Virus record (IMG/VR): IMGVR_UViG_3300045988_000806
Span: 1-5,538 of that record
Origin: a virus
DNA: 5,538 nt
Reading direction: 5' to 3' (one strand)
The notes under the pieces were generated by a model, which worked only from the letters and a program-made list of their open reading frames with translations, was not told the DNA's origin and searched no databases. Of the stretch, positions 1-5,538 are shown one piece after another (positions within the stretch are counted from its first letter, which is position 1; each line of letters opens with the position of its first letter). The translations under genes were made by a program, and so were the position numbers.

Positions 1-77
1 ATCCTGCGTCTTTGTTTCTGTTCACTGTTTTGCCTCCGTTTTTTCTGCCGGTTCAGGCGTTTTTGCTTCGGCTTGCT
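1..77. repeat. Terminal direct repeat, copy 1 (circular-contig overlap)
   Basis: Base-by-base comparison shows 1..77 is identical to 5462..5538. The repeat carries the VP3 stop, the VP1 start and the VP1 RBS, so the genes only join correctly if the molecule is circular. Confidence 0.95.
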
Positions 78-516
78 CTTCTTTGTAGATGCCCAGATTT
101 TTAGCCCATTCGACTGTGCCAAACGATGTGACAAATTTGTCGACGTCGTTGTCAAATTTATACTTTATTTCTTTTGGCACTTCATCCCAGATTTGTTCTG
201 CTCGGATCATGATATTCTGGAGTTCTGCCAGTGTTTTCGGTGCCTCGGTAAAGTCTTGGATACCGCCCCCGAGGTCTGGCGCAATTCGTTCTGCGATTTC
301 TGGGTCGATTGATGCTCTTCGGATAATGTTTTCGATTTTGGTTTCTTCGAGGTAGCTATCGATTTCGGCCTGCTGGTCAATGATTTGGTCGAGCTTCAGC
401 ACCCTTTCGCCTTCTTCGTTACGTTCCCAGAGATATGTTCGCCTTACGCCCTCTCCGGCCTCAGTTGGCCATGCCGCTGCTGTCTCTCGAAAGTTACTTA
501 CTGAGCGATACGCCAT
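22..516 (-). CDS. VP3: Internal scaffolding protein VP3 (164 aa from the preferred start; the ORF can extend to 582)
   Basis: The ORF track gives 22..582 (186 aa). The internal ATG at 514..516 is preceded by AAAGGAGAA with a spacer of about 8 nt, whereas the ATG at 580..582 has no SD. The protein is acidic and helical (..LDQIIDQQAEIDSYLEE.., acidic C-terminal tail), and its size and position immediately upstream of VP1 are typical of gokushovirus VP3. The TGA stop at 22..24 overlaps the VP1 GTG start (GTGA). Confidence 0.8.
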   Translation of the reverse strand: MAYRSVSNFRETAAAWPTEAGEGVRRTYLWERNEEGERVLKLDQIIDQQAEIDSYLEETKIENIIRRASIDPEIAERIAPDLGGGIQDFTEAPKTLAELQNIMIRAEQIWDEVPKEIKYKFDNDVDKFVTSFGTVEWAKNLGIYKEEQAEAKTPEPAEKTEAKQ

Positions 517-733
517 CGTAAATGTTCTCCTTTGCCCATTCGAAGTCGCCGTTCTTCTCATTGAACTTTGCCAGTCTGACAAGTCGGTAGTCGCTCGGCG
601 TCTTGCTCATAATGTTGTTTTCGTCCGTGAGCGCGATCTTAAAATTGCGCTCGGCGACCTTATCGTCTCGCTCGTTAAAGGTGGTGATGTAGCACATAGC
701 ACACTGGTCATAGATACCATACACGTTAATCAT
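494..733 (-). CDS. Small non-structural protein, gokushovirus VP5/ORF5-like (79 aa)
   Basis: The start MINVYGIYDQCAMCY.TTF...DDKVAERNF....D.NN.M...PSDY.L..LA.F.E.NG fits the YxIYDxxAxx(F/Y)...F....DxxAxRxF....PxD(F/Y)xLxxLGxFDxxxG pattern I recall for small conserved gokushovirus non-structural proteins. A GAGGAGG SD lies 9 nt upstream. The ATG (731..733) overlaps the TGA (730..732) of the preceding gene as ATGA. Confidence 0.65.
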   Translation of the reverse strand: MINVYGIYDQCAMCYITTFNERDDKVAERNFKIALTDENNIMSKTPSDYRLVRLAKFNEKNGDFEWAKENIYDGVSLSK

Positions 734-849
734 AATCTAATGCCTCCTCGCATTGCGCCGCTCCCAAGGTTGATAGCTTTGGTTTTTCGTGCGGTCTTGT
801 TGTAGATTTTTGCGTCTTTGGACTTGCGAACTTTACTCCTCTTTCCCAT
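730..849 (-). CDS. Small basic DNA-binding/packaging peptide, J-like (gokushovirus ORF8/VP8-like, 39 aa)
   Basis: This is the C-terminal part of the 730..978 ORF, starting at the internal ATG 847..849: MGKRSKVRKSKDAKIYNKTARKTKAINLGSGAMRGGIRL. It is very Lys/Arg-rich and ends in the MRGGIRL motif characteristic of gokushovirus ORF8 peptides. An AAGGG SD lies about 9 nt upstream. The N-terminal 43 codons of the 82-aa ORF lie wholly inside ORF 833..1060 in another frame and do not look protein-like. Confidence 0.7.
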   Translation of the reverse strand: MGKRSKVRKSKDAKIYNKTARKTKAINLGSGAMRGGIRL

Positions 850-1060
850 GGTTGATTTCCCTTCTGAGGATTTCCACCTCGATTTCGGTTGCTTTTGCTT
901 TTTTTTGGAATGCCATGTCAAGGTAAAATTTTGCGTCGTCGTACTTTGCGGCCTGTCGTAGCAGCTTGTATGCGGCATCGATTCCCTTGTAGGTTTGTGT
1001 CAATTCCTCCATAAGTTTCGTATCGGTCTGATCTCGGACGTTCCATACTTTTCCTTTCAT
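833..1060 (-). CDS. Hypothetical small protein (75 aa, helical, K/E-rich)
   Basis: The ATG at 1058..1060 has a GAGGAG SD 6 nt upstream, formed by the last codons of the preceding ORF. It lies on the same strand as all the other genes. I recognise no motif. Confidence 0.6.
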   Translation of the reverse strand: MKGKVWNVRDQTDTKLMEELTQTYKGIDAAYKLLRQAAKYDDAKFYLDMAFQKKAKATEIEVEILRREINHGKEE

Positions 1061-1063
1061 GGT

Positions 1064-1246
1064 TTACTCCTCGGGCTTGTTGTCCTTTAATGCGTGGTAA
1101 ATCGCGTCCAACTTTTCCAGAATCTCCATCATAATTTTGATGGCTTCCTTGATTTCTTTCATGCTAATGATTGCCATTTGTTCGCTCCATTTCTGCCTTT
1201 TGGCTTTTGTATTTGTAGACTTCTTCGATGATGGCTTTCGCCTCAT
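1064..1246 (-). CDS. Hypothetical small protein (60 aa; alternative 37-aa form starting at 1177)
   Basis: ORF track entry. The ATG at 1244..1246 has only a weak AAGAAG upstream. The internal ATG at 1175..1177 has GGAG (1185..1188) 7 nt upstream and yields MAIISMKEIKEAIKIMMEILEKLDAIYHALKDNKPEE, an amphipathic helix. The N-terminal 23 aa (MRRKPSSKKSTNTKAKRQKWSEQ) may be an out-of-frame reading of the 1164..1397 frame. Confidence 0.5.
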   Translation of the reverse strand: MRRKPSSKKSTNTKAKRQKWSEQMAIISMKEIKEAIKIMMEILEKLDAIYHALKDNKPEE

Positions 1247-1397
1247 CTACAGTATATGCTTCTTTGAGCTGCTTGTAAAGCTTTTTGATGATGTATTCAT
1301 ATTCATCATCTGTTTTTGGTTCTCTGTATTTTCTGGTTATCTCGTAGTATGCGCGGTTATCTATTTTTATCGCCTGCCTTTCTTTGATTGTATTATA
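1164..1397 (-). CDS. Candidate ORF with no canonical start codon (77 sense codons plus TAG)
   Basis: This is my own translation of the minus strand and is not in the ORF track: YNTIKERQAIKIDNRAYYEITRKYREPKTDDEYEYIIKKLYKQLKEAYTVDEAKAIIEEVYKYKSQKAEMERTNGNH*. The frame is open from the TAG at 1398..1400 to the TAG at 1164..1166. There is no ATG, GTG or TTG before codon 70. Its end overlaps the 1177 start of the next ORF by 14 nt, like other junctions in this genome. Confidence 0.3.
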   Translation of the reverse strand, partial: YNTIKERQAIKIDNRAYYEITRKYREPKTDDEYEYIIKKLYKQLKEAYTVDEAKAIIEEVYKYKSQKAEMERTNGNH

Positions 1398-1419
1398 CTA
1401 CATTTTTGAGATTTTTCAA
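1392..1419 (-). promoter_or_regulatory. Sigma70-like promoter reading into the small-ORF/VP3/VP1 gene block
   Basis: On the minus strand: TTGAAA (1419..1414), a 16-nt spacer, then a perfect TATAAT (1397..1392). It sits at the downstream edge of the long non-coding region, just before the first coding-like frame. Confidence 0.45.
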
Positions 1420-1440
1420 TTGTTTTTTTTCGGACTTTTT

Positions 1441-1520
1441 CTGAGAGGTCATGCGCTAGGCGCGGTGCGCCGTACGAAGAGCATGACGCAACTTTTTGGT
1501 TTCGCTTGCCGGACGGCCTT
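1441..1520. other. GC-rich structured island with nested hairpins
   Basis: I count 48 G/C in 80 nt within an otherwise AT-rich intergenic region. GTCATGC (1448..1454) pairs with GCATGAC (1481..1487). Inside that stem, GGCGC (1459..1463) pairs with GCGCC (1467..1471). Confidence 0.5.
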
Positions 1521-1527
1521 TATTTGC

Positions 1528-1630
1528 GTTTTCCACACTTTCAACACTTTCAACAGGTTTTCCACAAAATGTTGCACAAAGGTTTTTGTGCATATTGCTA
1601 CATTCTCAACAATTCAACAAGTTATCCACA
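1528..1630 (+). promoter_or_regulatory. Cluster of DnaA-box matches
   Basis: TTTTCCACA occurs at 1529..1537 and 1558..1566, both within the repeated 10-mer GTTTTCCACA. The perfect consensus TTATCCACA is at 1622..1630. A near match, TGTTGCACA, is at 1570..1578. All share one orientation and fit TTWTNCACA. Confidence 0.5.
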
Positions 1631-1704
1631 AAAGTATCAACATTAAAATTAGCCAAAAAATATCGTTCCAAGGATAAAAATTCATAGTATTCAACATTTC
1701 AACA
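1540..1704 (+). repeat. Seven co-oriented (T/C/A)TCAACA iteron-like repeats in three pairs plus one single copy
   Basis: TTCAACA is at 1540, 1549, 1613, 1690 and 1698. CTCAACA is at 1605 and ATCAACA at 1636. The pairs are spaced 8-9 nt apart; the first pair is a tandem 9-mer CACTTTCAA x2 (1536..1553). The 10-mer CAACAAGTTA recurs at 1615..1624 and 1724..1733. Confidence 0.7.
1573..1592. other. 8-bp hairpin overlapping the DnaA-box-like TGTTGCACA
   Basis: TGCACAAA (1573..1580) is the exact reverse complement of TTTGTGCA (1585..1592). The loop is GGTT. Confidence 0.55.
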
Positions 1705-1709
1705 CTCCC

Positions 1710-1724
1710 TACTACTACTACTAC
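1710..1724. repeat. (TAC)5 trinucleotide microsatellite
   Basis: Five perfect tandem TAC units can be read directly in a non-coding context. Confidence 0.9.
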
Positions 1725-1730
1725 AACAAG

Positions 1731-1755
1731 TTAATAATAAAAATAATAATATAAT
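1731..1755. other. 25-nt pure A/T tract (candidate DNA unwinding element)
   Basis: TTAATAATAAAAATAATAATATAAT contains no G or C. It lies between the iteron/DnaA-box array and the GC-rich block. Confidence 0.5.
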
Positions 1756-1796
1756 GCACGTGCGCGTGCGCGATCACGTGCGCGTGCGCGTGCATT
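1753..1796. repeat. GC-rich alternating purine/pyrimidine block: tandem 16-mer and imperfect palindrome
   Basis: CACGTGCGCGTGCGCG occurs at 1757..1772 and again at 1775..1790, separated by AT. Purine/pyrimidine alternation is perfect over 1754..1772 and 1775..1795. The arms 1753..1772 and 1777..1796 pair as 16 Watson-Crick plus 4 G.T pairs around an ATCA loop. Confidence 0.85.
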
Positions 1797-1824
1797 TAAC
1801 TGAGAATTTTTCTTATTTTTCACG

Positions 1825-1838
1825 TGATAACTGATAAC
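1825..1838. repeat. Tandem TGATAAC x2, abutting a third CACGTG
   Basis: TGATAAC occurs at 1825..1831 and 1832..1838. CACGTG at 1821..1826 is the third copy within 70 nt; the others are at 1757 and 1775. Confidence 0.8.
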
Positions 1839-1857
1839 CATTCGTGTTTAATAAAAT

Positions 1858-1897
1858 ACTCAGCCAAGTAGCTTACTTGATAGTTACTTGGCTGAGT
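1858..1897 (-). terminator. Hairpin 12 nt downstream of the Rep stop; candidate intrinsic terminator
   Basis: ACTCAGCCAAGTA (1858..1870) is the exact reverse complement of TACTTGGCTGAGT (1885..1897), giving a 13-bp stem. On the minus strand it is followed by ATTTTATT. A second 6-bp hairpin (TGACAC 1897..1902 / GTGTCA 1907..1912) covers the Rep stop codon. Confidence 0.5.
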
Positions 1898-1909
1898 GAC
1901 ACCAAAGTG

Positions 1910-2929
1910 TCAAAATATACCTTTGGCTTTGCTCATCTTCTTTGACATGGATGCTTCCTTGTCCTTTAGCTGTTCTGCGTATGACTTATCTGTTTCCGCG
2001 TTTCTTTCGATTAGGGACGCAATGGCTTTTTCTTGCCGATATTGTTTGATCCTCCACGCTTTTTCAGGGTTTTCCGCTTCCAGTTTTCTCCAGTAGTATT
2101 CTGGTATGGCCGCTCTCTTGCCGTTGGTAAGTTGTATGTATCCCTGCTGCCAGAGTCGCTCTTGATGGTCTTGAAACCATTGATCTCCGAGTCCCGGCTT
2201 TCGGCTCATTGTGCAAAATGGAGGTATTAAACCCATTTTTTGGTAACGCTTTTTGTCGTTGCCGTACAGTTTTTTGGTCACATATCCTGCAACATAATTA
2301 TATGTTTCCGGTGTTGCCTGTGCTATGTCTACAGTACCTTGTCCCCAGATTTTGACTAACTTATCGCTTGTATAATGACCGTGCCTTGACAATTTGTGGA
2401 TTGGTTTTAAGTCGTCCGGATGCCATCCGTATAGTATCATGTGATAGTGTGGTCTTGCCGTGTTTTCTCCATACTCTCCGGCTAGAAAGTACCTGAGAGG
2501 CTCTTTAACGGCTTTTCTGAGCCTTTTTATAAATAGCTGGGTATCTTCTACGTTCAGCGTTTGCGCTGTCCTTGGACGCTCTGAGACGCCTTTCCAGATA
2601 TTTATTCCGCCTTTATAGATTTCACCTGTTTCCGTGTCTTGCGTTGGTATATGATCATCGTCATAAGTTAGTGTGATAAACCAGATACTTTCTTTGTTGT
2701 GTCCGTATGCTTCCAGTTCCATTCGCGTTGACCAGTCTTTTCGTTTGCGCAGTCTGCACCCGGTGCATTGTCCGCATGGTATCAACATTACATCTTTTCG
2801 GTACATTAAATTTTCGTAAGTCATTTTGATCTTGTGTATCTCGTTAAAAGAGGCGAGTGAGTATACTCGCCCACTCGCCTCCCTGTTATGAGGTACATAA
2901 AACCGGATTAGTGGTTTATTGCATCCCAT
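1910..2929 (-). CDS. VP4: Replication initiation protein VP4 (HUH rolling-circle endonuclease, 339 aa)
   Basis: RCR motif I is FITLTY (2663..2680). Motif II (HUH) is HYHMILY (2429..2449). Motif III is YVAGYVTK with two Tyr (2273..2296). A Cys cluster, CGQCTGC, is at 2756..2776. The N-terminus MGCNKPL is typical of gokushovirus VP4. The ATG directly follows the VP2 TAA (TAAATG). Confidence 0.95.
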   Translation of the reverse strand: MGCNKPLIRFYVPHNREASGRVYSLASFNEIHKIKMTYENLMYRKDVMLIPCGQCTGCRLRKRKDWSTRMELEAYGHNKESIWFITLTYDDDHIPTQDTETGEIYKGGINIWKGVSERPRTAQTLNVEDTQLFIKRLRKAVKEPLRYFLAGEYGENTARPHYHMILYGWHPDDLKPIHKLSRHGHYTSDKLVKIWGQGTVDIAQATPETYNYVAGYVTKKLYGNDKKRYQKMGLIPPFCTMSRKPGLGDQWFQDHQERLWQQGYIQLTNGKRAAIPEYYWRKLEAENPEKAWRIKQYRQEKAIASLIERNAETDKSYAEQLKDKEASMSKKMSKAKGIF

Positions 2930-3772
2930 TTATTTAAGTTTTCCTTTCCAAAATTCGACGTTTTTGCTTCCTATGAAGTCTCTCCCCGGCTTGTATTCAA
3001 GCTCATTTTTGGTTGGCTTTCTTCCTGCTCCGCCGACTCCGGCGTTTAGGCTTGTTAGATCGTTGAAGACGTCCTTGAATGCGTTGAATGCTTTGTCAGC
3101 ACTTGTATGTTGCCAGCTTGTTGCATCTCCAACTGCTTGTGCTGCGTTGTACCATGCTGATTCTGACTTGCTCCATGTGTTGTTATGGTTTTGGCTCACG
3201 CCCAGAGCACTTGCGCTTGCTGCGCTGCTACTTGCTAACCCCATGCTTGCCCCGCTTATGGTGCCTTGTGCGCCTCCCGGTGTACTCGCTCCACCTTGCT
3301 GGTATGCTAAGATAGGGTTGATTCCCGCTTTTCGCATGTCGGCTACGGCTCTTTGATATGCTGTGTTACTCATTTGCTCTTGCCATGCTCTGTTTTTTGC
3401 GGCTTCGGCGCTGTTGTAGTTCATCGCTGCGTTGTTGCTTATCTGGTTATACACGCCTTGTGTGATCGCCGCCATGGTGTTATAGCCCATTTGCTCAAAC
3501 ATGCTTTTTCGGTTAAACTTTTGCTGACTCTGCATATTTGACTGTATTGCTCCAAGCATGCTATTCCAGTCTTGTAGATTTTGCTCTCTGTTTACGCCGC
3601 TTTGGCTGTTGCTTTGGCCTCCGCCTTGGCTATAGCTTTCGTTGTGCTGTTGGCTTCCTCCGCTGCTTTCGGTCATGCTTCCGCCAAGTAGTTTGTTTAA
3701 ACCCCAGCCTACAACTGTTGGTATTAACTGTTTTCCGATTCCTAGTAATGCGCTTCCAAGTCCTGCTAACAT
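2930..3772 (-). CDS. VP2: DNA pilot / minor capsid protein VP2 (280 aa)
   Basis: The N-terminus is hydrophobic and Gly-rich ([24 protein letters not shown]). A Gln/Ser/Gly-rich linker follows. The hallmark block [28 protein letters not shown] (3302..3385) is characteristic of gokushovirus VP2. Confidence 0.92.
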
Positions 3773-3780
3773 AAATAAAT

Positions 3781-3805
3781 AAGCCCGGGGTTTTGCCCCG
3801 GGCTT
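3781..3805 (-). terminator. GC-rich hairpin between VP1 and VP2 (candidate leaky intrinsic terminator or attenuator)
   Basis: AAGCCCGGGG (3781..3790) pairs perfectly with CCCCGGGCTT (3796..3805), giving a 10-bp stem and a 5-nt loop. On the coding strand it is followed by ATTTATTT and then the VP2 ATG. Confidence 0.5.
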
Positions 3806-3818
3806 CCCCCTTTCGTTT

Positions 3819-5486
3819 TTAGTGGTGATCTACGAGTCCCGGAATGCTGTACATGGGCATCGGTCTGACGCTGGTGTTGTCTATGACAGTGTCCATGATA
3901 AATTGCGGTTCGTTTTCTACTGCGAGAGTTCTCTGGATTTCGGAGTCTCCTTCCTTCATCCATGCTTGACTTAGGTTTGGGATGCTCGTGTAATAGTCGC
4001 CGTAGTGCCAAACATCCAGCGATCCTTTTGCGTTACTGCGGAATTTGCCACAGATACGGTTTGGTTTCATTCTGTATTCGGCCCAACACTCTTGGTAGCC
4101 GAATGCCTGTTCGTCGGTTTCCGTGCCCGTTAAGTAGATTTCCTTCTTGAGGATTGCTTGTTCACCCAGATTTGCGAATACAGGATAGTAAAAGTCGAGG
4201 TTTGTTTTGCGACTCCACATCCTTTCGAGTCCCTGTTGGTAGGTATGATCATGCCGGATGCAGCATACGCCGATAACATAGCCGTGTTCTTCGAAGCTCT
4301 TCGTGAACATGCTGCCGTTGTATGGTGTGACGGACACTGCTGCAGTGTTACCCTGCGGACTCTCTGCGGTCGTGCCGCTGGTCTGAATAACCTGACTCAT
4401 GTTGATGGTGATTCGCGTACCGCCTAGGTACTCCGGAATCTGTACAGTTTTGTCTGAAATCTTCGTATGGAACAAACTGTAAATCATCTCGCGGTATCTG
4501 CTGCCGCCGCGCGCGAGTTGTTCGTAGTATTTTTGTACCTGAAAAGCCTGTCTCAGCTGGTTGATAGTCGTTGCGTTTACTTTGCTCATGTCTGTGTATA
4601 AGTCCATGTTTCCGTAGTAATACGTATCGTCGCTTTTGTACCAACCGTTGATAGTGATTGACGTATCTTCGTTGTTGGAGATATTGCTGCTTTGGCCGTT
4701 TCTGGTAATAAATTCCAGCGTTTCCGGCTCTTTTTCGTCGCTGTTGTATTTGTAACCGTATATTGGTGCTTTACCGCTCAGCGGGATTGTTACCGGTTTT
4801 CCTGTTTTCTGCGCACTTGGTAACGCGCTGGTGAAGTAGTCGTGGAATTTGTTGACCGGCAGCGGTCTGCCGCCTTCGTAAGCGTACTTTAAATTATCTT
4901 CTATGTTTTTGTCGTCTCCGGTGTCTTGATACAGTTCTGTCGCGTCATCGAAGAAATTAATTGCTGGATTGTCTACGTTCTGATCTCTGAACCACTCTTG
5001 CCATATCATTGCGTAGGCTCTGAATGGGAGTGCGTTTACTTCAAATTCTGTATTTTCGTCTTTGCATACTTTCGTCGGAATTCCCATGTAATCCATGAGG
5101 CTTCCTTCCAGCGGCAAGGCATTGCCGCTGGTGCTTGCTTTGACTCTGATTTGTGGTACTGTGTATTCTTGCGTTTGCGCCCACGGCCCGGTGTCGTTTT
5201 CTCCCATAAACCGTTTCCAGTTTTTCCACAAGATGCGGTTCGGTGTGAAAAAGTAGTAGATGTCCATATAACAGTTGTCCATAACTGGGAAGATTGGAGT
5301 TGTCATACGGATAATCGCCGCTTGATCAATACTAAAAGTATCACCCGGTAGGACTTCATCCACGTAAAACGGGATTAGCTGTCCTGCGTTCAGTGTTAAT
5401 TTGACGTCTTGTCGTCTCTTGAAGCGGCTTCGCGTGATGTCCAAGCGTGGGACTTGGTTGAATCCTGCGTCTTTGTTTCTGTTCAC
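3819..5486 (-). CDS. VP1: Major capsid protein VP1 (555 aa, GTG start)
   Basis: Conserved gokushovirus VP1 blocks are present: [60 protein letters not shown], and IPEYLGG. The size is typical. GGAGG (5494..5498) lies 7 nt upstream of the GTG at 5484..5486, and an in-frame TGA lies 27 nt further upstream. Confidence 0.97.
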
Positions 5487-5538
5487 TGTTTTGCCTCCGT
5501 TTTTTCTGCCGGTTCAGGCGTTTTTGCTTCGGCTTGCT
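5462..5538. repeat. Terminal direct repeat, copy 2 (circular-contig overlap)
   Basis: Identical to 1..77. Confidence 0.95.

Follow-up and report, generated by a model that had tools for sequence, protein, structure and literature searches.

The 5,538-nt stretch of viral DNA analyzed here (the window; positions 1 to 5,538 of IMG/VR record IMGVR_UViG_3300045988_000806) carries the genome of a gokushovirus of the family Microviridae, and the only large non-coding stretch of this genome, at 1247-1909, contains a module that we interpret as an oriC-type, DnaA-dependent duplex-unwinding module (1529-1755, with a G+C-rich clamp extending to 1796). We place the probability of this interpretation at roughly 0.6. 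The architecture of the module, its conservation, its independence of orientation, its thermodynamics, its specificity for oriC loci and its link to a host were established in silico. The preliminary description of this DNA had raised the idea that this microvirus carries an origin-like module dependent on DnaA, and this prediction is upheld by a match to the basal unwinding system (BUS) of bacterial origins, by specificity for dnaA-dnaN loci and by signs of purifying selection. Elements of this kind are known, and what appears to be new is the presence of one in Microviridae alongside a rolling-circle Rep. Full-text literature searches returned no description of a DnaA- or oriC-type element in gokushoviruses or other Microviridae, nor of a DnaA-trio in a bacteriophage.

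Architecture of the module

The left part of the module, at 1529-1704, is an array of about ten box-like 9-mers in total, all of them co-oriented (Table 1). Three of these match the DnaA-box consensus TTWTNCACA on the plus strand, at 1529-1537 and 1558-1566 (TTTTCCACA in both cases) and at 1622-1630, where the only perfect TTATCCACA of the window is found. When both strands of the whole window are considered, the consensus is matched seven times against 0.42 expected, and none of 200 dinucleotide shuffles reached that number. The hexamer TCAACA is present in ten copies against 3.8 expected, seven of them at 1541-1704 and all seven on the plus strand. Similarly, 8-mers of the form WWTCMACA occur 12 times against 1.76 expected (0/200 shuffles reach 12), and nine of the 12 fall at 1530-1704 on the plus strand. 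The three co-oriented consensus boxes, the seven co-oriented TCAACA repeats, the 8-bp hairpin at 1573-1592 and the 25-nt A/T tract of the preliminary description are thus all present, and the enrichment of the motifs holds against shuffled sequence. Three features were overlooked at that stage: the box pairs at 1606/1614 and 1691/1699 keep an 8-nt register, five CTA triplets (1709-1723) follow the last box pair ahead of the A/T tract, and a G+C-rich palindrome lies beyond the tract.

The right part of the module, which we refer to as the unwinding unit (1688-1755), consists of a box, a second box, CTCC, (CTA)5 and a 25-nt A/T tract, in the order TATTCAACA / TTTCAACA / CTCC / (CTA)5 / A/T tract. 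According to the papers that define the BUS, it is built from a single DnaA box or a pair of them, followed after a gap of some 4 bp (the former "GC-rich region") by three or more trios whose central base is A. The spacer between box and trios is at most 16 bp long, and the trios sit on the strand that forms a 5' tail relative to the boxes. The rule of Pelliciari et al. 2021 (PMC8287927) allows the box at most two mismatches to the species motif and a distance of 0-16 bp from the trios, and a tandem upstream box at most four mismatches; the trio consensus is 3'-GAT-5', and a 12 bp spacer is typical of Firmicutes. In the phage, the boxes at 1688-1696 and 1696-1704 are tandem and co-oriented, and follow each other in an 8-nt register like boxes 6 and 7 of Bacillus subtilis, so that the second box is present as well. 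The gap is 4 nt long and the upstream box lies 12 nt from the first trio. Five exact, consecutive GAT trios follow in the orientation found in the B. subtilis scaffold oligonucleotides, and the A/T tract begins directly beyond the trio array.

We also scanned the genome with a simplified BUS rule (a box with at most two mismatches to TTATCCACA or TTATCAACA, a spacer of at most 16 and at least three YTA triplets). The rule picks out one genomic site, while at least one match was obtained in 11 of 1000 dinucleotide shuffles, and two matches were found in 178 kb of gokushovirus prophage loci that are free of the module. Matches to the rule in loci L094 and L119 were judged on inspection to be due to chance.

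The thermodynamic profile of the region is distinctive. Nearest-neighbour energies give the A/T tract -26.8 kcal/mol in a 30-nt window, compared to a mean of -39.7 (standard deviation 3.5), and this least stable duplex of the genome abuts the most stable one (1755-1804). The G+C-rich block at 1756-1796 can form a 20-bp hairpin on the plus strand (-21.8 kcal/mol, z = -3.75; z = -0.6 on the minus strand), and its probable role is to confine the bubble or to serve as a single-strand signal. The block is built of CG and TG steps, contains two 16-nt direct repeats (1757-1772 and 1775-1790), is Z-DNA-prone and pairs in its hairpin through G-C and G-T; some distant relatives carry a different G+C hairpin (GGCGCT...AGCGCC) in its place. 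An RNA element was considered for the module and rejected: Rfam returned just a sub-threshold microRNA match over the purine-pyrimidine block.

Similarity to bacterial origins

The series of motifs in the unwinding unit has close counterparts in Firmicute origins. The scaffold oligonucleotides of B. subtilis read TTATCCACA / AATCCACA / GGCC / CTA CTA TTA CTT CTA CTA, the published predictions for Clostridium acetobutylicum and C. botulinum read TTATCAACA / AATCCACA / CTCC / CTACTACTATTACTACTT (short form CTACTACTATTA...) and TTATTAACA / TATCAACA / AGCC / (CTA)6, respectively, and the C. difficile trio reads CACCTACTACTATTACTACTATGA. With the BUS of these bacteria (incC boxes 6/7 of B. subtilis, oriC2 of C. 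difficile, C. acetobutylicum and C. botulinum) the phage module shares a tandem of co-oriented boxes spaced in an 8-nt register, a G+C spacer of 4 nt, an upstream box that lies 12 nt from the trios, five or more 3'-GAT-5' trios carried by the strand with a TGTGGATAA-like reading, an A/T-rich tract beyond the trios and a further cluster of boxes upstream. It differs from them in that its proximal boxes are of the TCAACA type, with three mismatches to the E. coli consensus, in that all of its boxes are co-oriented, and in the G+C-rich purine-pyrimidine palindrome beyond the unwinding tract, which was not seen in the bacterial matches. It also resides on a 5.5-kb single-stranded DNA phage with a rolling-circle Rep and not at dnaA-dnaN; because it lies between the hairpin that follows VP4 and the phage promoter, and not beside dnaA or dnaN on a chromosome, we refer to it as oriC-like and not as an oriC.

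The TCAACA repeats had been described as iterons. Comparison with Clostridia leads us to a different view: they are not separate, plasmid-style iterons but most likely represent DnaA boxes of the form TTATCNACA/TTTTCAACA, which several members of the Clostridia and Oscillospiraceae employ. The DnaA-box consensus of Thermoanaerobacter tengcongensis (class Clostridia) is TTATCNACA, and its DnaA binds an oligonucleotide with TGTTGATAA and TGTGGATAA at 8 nM. Ruminococcus albus is listed in the published BUS table with TTTTCAACA-GGT-TTTTCAACA, to be compared with TTTCAACAGGTTTTC(C/A)ACA in the phage. Two metagenome loci (L198 and L219; the DnaA of L219 shares 74% identity with its counterpart in Ca. 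Faeciplasma, a member of the Oscillospiraceae) have origins made of TTTTCAACA boxes that end in TTTTCAACATTTCAACA / GCCC / CTACTACTA. A contig (L321) encodes the exact DnaA named for Faeciplasma, and its dnaA-dnaN spacer holds TTTTCAACA and TTTTCGACA boxes and the unit TTTTCGACA / GCCC / CTACTACTAATACTA / A/T-rich. The similarity of the phage module to this group (R. albus, L198, L219 and L321) thus extends to TTTTCAACA-type boxes, the string TTTTCAACAGGTTTTCAACA and the unit TTTTCAACATTTCAACA / GCCC / CTACTACTA. The bacterial origins are longer, have boxes in both orientations and carry additional TGTCGAA repeats, and the likeness is one of motif architecture, with no extended sequence homology. 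The positions that switch between CCACA and CAACA among the phages do not count against DnaA, since such C/A switching is variation within a family of boxes that hosts of this type use. The other leads from literature searches with box sequences proved to be primer noise, T. tengcongensis being the exception, and a locus picked as a Faecalibacterium oriC on the basis of its G+C content (L199) was discarded as Selenomonas-like.

The specificity of the arrangement was assessed with a pattern derived from the phage, TCAACA-NN-TCMACA-NNNN-CTACTACTA. In metagenomes it matches at least 119 loci; among the matches listed, 18 are gokushoviruses and 93 of the 101 non-phage loci adjoin dnaA and/or dnaN (74 adjoin both, and 8 neither). 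Four metagenome matches whose neighborhoods were checked with Pfam place the pattern exactly between DnaA and the beta clamp. Within IMG/VR the pattern is found on 58 contigs, 57 of which carry the microvirus capsid gene (VP1).

Conservation and orientation of the module among microviruses

In order to examine related phages, we gathered 80 IMG/VR loci via the Rep protein and aligned the module in 62 distinct relative sequences together with the window; the non-coding region as such is kept in 49 phage records. The geometry is invariant in the 55 distinct relative sequences that have three consecutive CTA triplets: box, 2 nt, box, 4 nt, (CTA)3, 3 nt, CTA CAA CAA, A/T tract and G+C-rich block. 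The spacer measures 4 nt in 55/55 of them (L124 is 1 nt shorter overall), and the trio core (CTA)3-NNN-CTA-CAA-CAA is near-invariant, with one extra CTA triplet as its single change in length (L064).

The boxes themselves are more variable. The first of the consensus boxes is TTTTCAACA in 36 of 46 close-clade sequences, and the second and third end in CCACA in 42 of the 46 and in CAACA in most of the distant clade, whose Rep is 57% identical; that clade has TTTTCCACA/T at the repeat ending at 1704.

Between the window and the distant clade the 207-nt segment with boxes and trios is 73-79% identical, compared to 60% for the Rep gene and 39-49% for four-fold sites, and Rep proteins are 51-58% identical across the relatives that share the module. 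The fact that a non-coding segment is this much better preserved than four-fold sites indicates strong purifying selection.

In several genomes (L068, L083 and L122-L124; GenBank genomes MG945447, KT264801 and KX513876) boxes, trios and A/T tract are turned round together with respect to the genes, and 5 of 57 IMG/VR contigs are in this state. The module is thus found either way round with respect to the packaged strand. This argues against a signal of the packaged single strand, which could not tolerate such inversion, whereas a self-contained origin unit that binds proteins as duplex can.

Similar architectures with canonical boxes are found in microviruses that are only remotely related to the window. 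One 4.6-kb, A/T-rich contig (L297; Rep 28% and capsid 26% identical to those of the window) has at 3022-3320 a region close to a textbook oriC, with seven co-oriented and one inverted perfect TTATCCACA/TTATCAACA boxes, followed by TTATCAACA / TATCAACA / CCCC / CTACTACTACTATTA, that is (CTA)4 TTA, a long A/T tract and CGCGCG. A third lineage is made up of four contigs of ~4.7 kb (L305, at ~4110-4320, L306, L317 and L319), with capsids 35-38% identical. On the coding strand they carry 4-5 TTATCCACA boxes and downstream of them (A/T)TTTCCACA / TTTCCACA / ATGC / (CTA)5-6 and a stretch rich in A/T. That microviruses this distant share the architecture and have canonical boxes in it is hard to explain except via DnaA.

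Fifteen large IMG/VR contigs (12-275 kb; L302-L304, L307-L316, L318 and L320) also show clusters of TTATCCACA, a box pair, a spacer and CTA trios, and neither dnaA nor dnaN was detected on them within the retrieved loci. Units of oriC type may be common on larger phages and phage-plasmids, or these large contigs may be fragments of hosts.

Searches for the module outside free phage genomes gave little. A strict 27-nt pattern of the module had no match in 185,579 species genomes, and plasmid relatives of the region were sought with blastn against PLSDB and none was returned. Among the 37 loci from a scan with a Rep profile the module was present in one only (L085), a 5.8-kb contig binned with a Prevotella metagenome-assembled genome, probably by mistake; its Rep is 51% identical and it keeps the module layout. 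The idea of a prophage or host copy was abandoned, as integrated relatives (Rep at most 42% identical) do not have the module. These integrated gokushovirus relatives (L086-L121) reside in Oscillibacter, Peptostreptococcaceae, Phascolarctobacterium and other contigs, and genomes with the module were observed only as free contigs of ~4.4-6.2 kb. This distribution fits an episomal lifestyle and does not prove it.

Link to a host

The unwinding unit is the target of a CRISPR spacer. Locus L243 carries at 1-1155 a type I-C-like array with the repeat GTCGCCCTCCTCGCGGAGGGCGTGGATAGAAAT and 17 complete spacers, one of which matches the protospacer at 1684-1718 of the window (Table 1). The flanking TTC corresponds to the protospacer adjacent motif of type I-C systems. 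Sister spacers in the same array match the Faecalibacterium phages Pioen (34/34 nt) and Roos (93% over 44 nt), and others match uncultured human-gut phages. Faecalibacterium and Ca. Faeciplasma both belong to the Oscillospiraceae, and a virome study predicted that gut Gokushovirinae infect Clostridiales. The host is probably a member of the Oscillospiraceae, a Faecalibacterium-like Clostridia bacterium, and the type of host indicated by CRISPR and virome data is concordant with the type of origin indicated by the boxes.

Genome and genomic neighborhood

The window comprises a circular genome of 5461 nt and an exact terminal repeat of 77 nt (1-77 and 5462-5538), with 45% G+C; the repeat is an assembly signature, from which circularity follows. 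Every gene lies on the minus strand, and the plus strand is 36% T and 18% A, which makes the coding strand strongly A-rich. By family precedent we take the packaged strand to be the coding strand, here the minus strand. Membership in the Gokushovirinae is indicated by a Phage_F capsid, a scaffold protein, VP5, an HUH Rep, a circular genome in the ~4.5-6 kb size class and similarity to named gokushoviruses: the closest records are gut gokushoviruses of humans, pigs and monkeys, including Gokushovirus WZ-2015a, which align with 81-92% of the genome and are 77-83% identical to it there. There are further small open reading frames (ORFs), four unannotated ORFs or ORF-like frames being located downstream of the promoter, and Pfam-type domain searches gave no match for the small ORFs, DNA-binding domains included. 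One minus-strand frame at 1247-1380 (~68 codons, IKIDNRAYYEITRKYREPKTDDEYEYIIKKLYKQLKEAYTVDEAKAIIEEVYKYK...) is protein-like but lacks an ATG, GTG or TTG start, for which reason it is absent from the list of ORFs, and has no family match. The window contains no tRNAs.

Table 1. Coordinates of the module components and of other features of the window.
Feature	Position	Strand	Remarks
Predicted DnaA box TTTTCCACA	1529-1537	+	1 mismatch to TTATCCACA; TTTTCAACA in most relatives
Two adjoining putative boxes, CTTTCAACA + CTTTCAACA	1538-1555	+	TCAACA type; each 2 mismatches to TTATCAACA
Predicted DnaA box TTTTCCACA	1558-1566	+	context TTTCAACAGGTTTTCMACA akin to Ruminococcus albus oriC TTTTCAACA-GGT-TTTTCAACA
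8-bp palindrome TGCACAAA/TTTGTGCA	1573-1592		variable loop; overlaps weak one-mismatch box TGTTGCACA (1570-1578)
Putative box pair TTCTCAACA / AATTCAACA	1603-1619	+	8-nt register, as in the trio-adjacent pair
Predicted DnaA box TTATCCACA, perfect	1622-1630	+	TT(A/T)TCCACA in 41/46 close relatives; mostly TTTTCAACA in distant clade
Putative box GTATCAACA	1634-1642	+	1 mismatch to TTATCAACA
CRISPR protospacer (1684-1718) with 5'-TTC flank (1681-1683)	1681-1718	+	L243 spacer; 1 mismatch to window, 0 to some relatives
Upstream putative box of unwinding unit, TATTCAACA	1688-1696	+	12 nt from box end to first trio, the Firmicute norm
Proximal putative box of unwinding unit, ATTTCAACA	1696-1704	+	TTTTCCACA/T in distant clade and L085
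4-nt G+C spacer CTCC	1705-1708	+	same letters as C. acetobutylicum oriC spacer
Putative DnaA-trio array, (CTA)5 CAA CAA G on + strand	1709-1730	-	five 3'-GAT-5' trios on minus strand, 1709-1723
25-nt pure A/T tract, candidate unwinding element	1731-1755		least stable genome duplex at 20-, 30- and 50-nt windows
G+C-rich alternating purine-pyrimidine imperfect palindrome	1756-1796		overlooked in the preliminary description
Hairpin just 3' of VP4 stop codon	1858-1897		loop invariant, compensatory changes in stem in relatives
Sigma-70-type promoter TTGAAA-16-TATAAT	1392-1419	-	11/12 consensus positions; directed away from module, into gene block
VP4, Rep	1910-2929	-	HUH Rep; PF23343, phrog_942
VP2, pilot protein	2930-3772	-	gene of the window genome
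VP1, capsid	3819-5486	-	Pfam Phage_F, E = 7e-143
VP3, scaffold (Chlamydia-phage-type)	22-582	-	Pfam
VP5	494-733	-	Pfam

The gap that holds the module is bounded by the hairpin at 1858-1897 and by a promoter directed away from it, and is therefore probably untranscribed. This hairpin folds with -14 kcal/mol (z = -6 on both strands) and is a candidate transcription terminator and/or a candidate Rep nick-site hairpin. A T-rich run follows it on the coding strand, and its loop on the plus strand, antisense to the genes, reads CTTACTTGATAG and includes CTTGATA, which we take to be a nick motif of the phiX174/pC194 type. In the interval between the box array and the promoter there is a nested G+C-rich hairpin (1448-1487). 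Members of the close clade keep it almost unchanged, and in the distant clade another sequence takes its place. The hairpin may be a signal read on single-stranded DNA, such as one that directs priming of the complementary strand.

Alternative explanations

Several observations weigh against an unwinding module. The trio-adjacent boxes ATTTCAACA and TATTCAACA have three mismatches to TTATCCACA, the E. coli consensus, and two to TTATCAACA, so that they satisfy the published limit of two mismatches only with the Clostridia-type TTATCAACA as the standard. Ten of 63 sequences (the window and its 62 relatives) have no TTWTNCACA in the module, yet carry 7-9 TCAACA repeats, and the origins used for comparison come from bacteria other than Faecalibacterium. 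Besides a normal HUH Rep the phage possesses a candidate nick hairpin, so that an additional origin is not obviously required. Microviruses are not known to require DnaA. The trio-distal two-thirds of the box array could serve a purpose other than that of the unwinding unit. Finally, DnaA binding, melting, helicase loading and a role in the phage cycle are all predicted from sequence.

Boxes would suffice if the array bound DnaA without starting replication, either as a sink, in which many copies of the replicative form with about ten boxes apiece titrate DnaA and stall initiation on the host chromosome, or as a sensing switch that tunes the promoter or the timing of Rep. The evidence for the boxes is the same under this explanation, which is also compatible with independence of orientation, and the cluster does lie 110-310 bp upstream of the promoter at 1392-1419, the only strong one. 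We regard a sink as unlikely, however, given that it would not explain why an invariant spacer, trios in phase and an A/T tract recur in 55 sequences and in two very distant lineages, nor why this tract is the weakest duplex of the genome. Less likely again is the possibility that the oriC likeness is a coincidence and that the repeats are iterons for a phage-encoded protein, either the VP4 Rep or the product of one of the small ORFs after the promoter. The direct repeats are indeed located 150-370 nt from the candidate nick hairpin, and the interchange of CCACA and CAACA in relatives would agree with such a function. An arrangement of this kind is seen in double-strand origins of the pMV158 type, where a nick hairpin is combined with the direct repeats of a bind locus, and the phage likewise has repeats some way off from a hairpin whose loop is conserved; the iterons of CRESS viruses are a further parallel. 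Iterons specific to a Rep should co-vary with it, though, and here the repeat is constant across Reps that are 51-58% identical, the canonical TTATCCACA is found where Rep is 28% identical, and, unlike in pMV158-type origins, trios and an unwinding tract follow. In addition, the small ORFs match no DNA-binding domain, and the pattern is, among the matches listed, near-diagnostic for dnaA-dnaN spacers. We also dropped the notion of TTCAACA as a non-DnaA iteron with C-variant look-alikes, which the CCACA/CAACA swaps and the ten sequences without TTWTNCACA had suggested: TTATCNACA/TTTTCAACA is the Clostridia/Oscillospiraceae box, the trios were recognized, and distant lineages have canonical boxes. 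Plasmid and phage origins assisted by DnaA, such as P1 oriR, F oriS, pSC101 and RK2 oriV, also place DnaA boxes beside an A/T-rich opening region on a mobile replicon. These origins need their own iteron-binding initiator (RepA, TrfA), with DnaA as a helper. The window encodes no RepA-, TrfA- or Pi-type initiator, its only replication protein being the HUH Rep, and the phage repeats look like DnaA boxes with trios, which is the oriC-type design.

The preliminary description listed as its first option a single-strand signal, a DnaA-box hairpin on which a DnaA-DnaB-DnaC (ABC) primosome would start the conversion of single-stranded DNA to the replicative form. The complementary-strand origins known in microviruses are the PriA primosome assembly site of phiX174 and the primase origin of G4. 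Like these and the hairpins of plasmid ABC primosomes, the module is intergenic and accompanied by several hairpins, and the one at 1573-1592 (-7.7 kcal/mol, z = -3.2) overlaps a one-mismatch box. We nevertheless find this role improbable. Signals of the phiX174, G4 and ABC-primosome kind are strand-specific structures of single-stranded DNA, whereas the module has duplex-binding motifs and is found on either strand relative to the genes; the distant clade has the unrelated palindrome CGTCAnnnTGACG in place of the hairpin; and in the fold of the viral strand, which is unremarkable over the whole region (z = -1.8), the strong boxes lie outside stems and the only box held in a stem is the one with a mismatch (1570-1578). 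Equally improbable is an array for another host protein that controls phage transcription, such as Spo0A or a response regulator that binds direct repeats. The 0A box is TGTCGAA, whose reverse complement TTCGACA is one mismatch away from TTCAACA, and the array is situated upstream of a promoter. The dnaA-dnaN spacer of L321 has four exact TGTCGAA repeats, the Spo0A-box sequence (3098-3143), upstream of its TTTTCAACA/TTTTCGACA boxes, so that sites of the 0A type and of the DnaA type seem to overlap in Oscillospiraceae. None of the phage repeats is an exact 0A box, however, canonical TTATCCACA boxes in two other lineages indicate DnaA, and such regulation leaves the trios, the spacer and the A/T tract unexplained. 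An inert passenger, that is, a recombined piece of a host oriC with no function in the phage, would account for the resemblance to host origins and is the most far-fetched of these ideas: a 5.5-kb genome retains the module in hundreds of contigs, the segment keeps 73-79% identity where synonymous sites approach saturation, its internal geometry does not vary and three lineages have it.

Proposed mechanism

The most likely function of the unwinding module is, judging by its motifs, the DnaA-driven opening of the double-stranded replicative form. Host DnaA-ATP would bind the co-oriented boxes on the replicative form, with TTATCCACA and TTTTCCACA as the strong sites and the TTTCAACA boxes as a host-type TTWTCNACA variant. 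The tandem pair at 1688-1704 would place a DnaA oligomer, which could then spread over CTCC onto the five minus-strand 3'-GAT-5' trios (1709-1723), stretch that strand and melt the adjacent 25 bp of A/T tract, and the resulting bubble would be limited by the G+C block at 1756-1796. Host proteins for helicase loading and priming would enter via the bubble, so that replication of the replicative form would be started or boosted, independently of or ahead of the rolling-circle synthesis by Rep. We consider it very likely that DnaA binds the module and probable, with less assurance, that it unwinds DNA there; whether the module is used as a true start of replication we would put at even odds. The bubble may be used for replication of the theta type or for maintenance in the manner of a plasmid, it may assist Rep at the hairpin 100 nt away, or the module may serve mainly to titrate DnaA.

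A more speculative proposal, which we advance tentatively and regard as doubtful in its entirety, is that these phages are dual-mode replicons, in which the double-stranded form would be a DnaA-fired mini-chromosome and Rep would solely spin off strands for packaging. This joint proposal extends to at least three lineages and possibly to larger phages, and includes plasmid-like persistence in Faecalibacterium-type hosts without integration.

Implications for microvirus biology

In textbooks, microviruses replicate by a Rep-driven rolling circle together with a primosome of the host, and DnaA has no part in the process. If our interpretation is correct, a second step that depends on the host initiator would be added to this scheme, and phage replication would be coupled to the growth state of the host. 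The module offers a compact, natural 230-bp test piece for the mechanics of DnaA boxes and trios, and, because the type of box and the style of trio follow the lineage of the host, it is usable as a sequence-based host marker, in this case for Oscillospiraceae. The BUS-like modules on 15 large viral contigs suggest that the phenomenon may extend beyond microviruses. For gut microviruses that do not integrate, a DnaA-dependent module of this kind would provide a concrete mechanism for long-term persistence.

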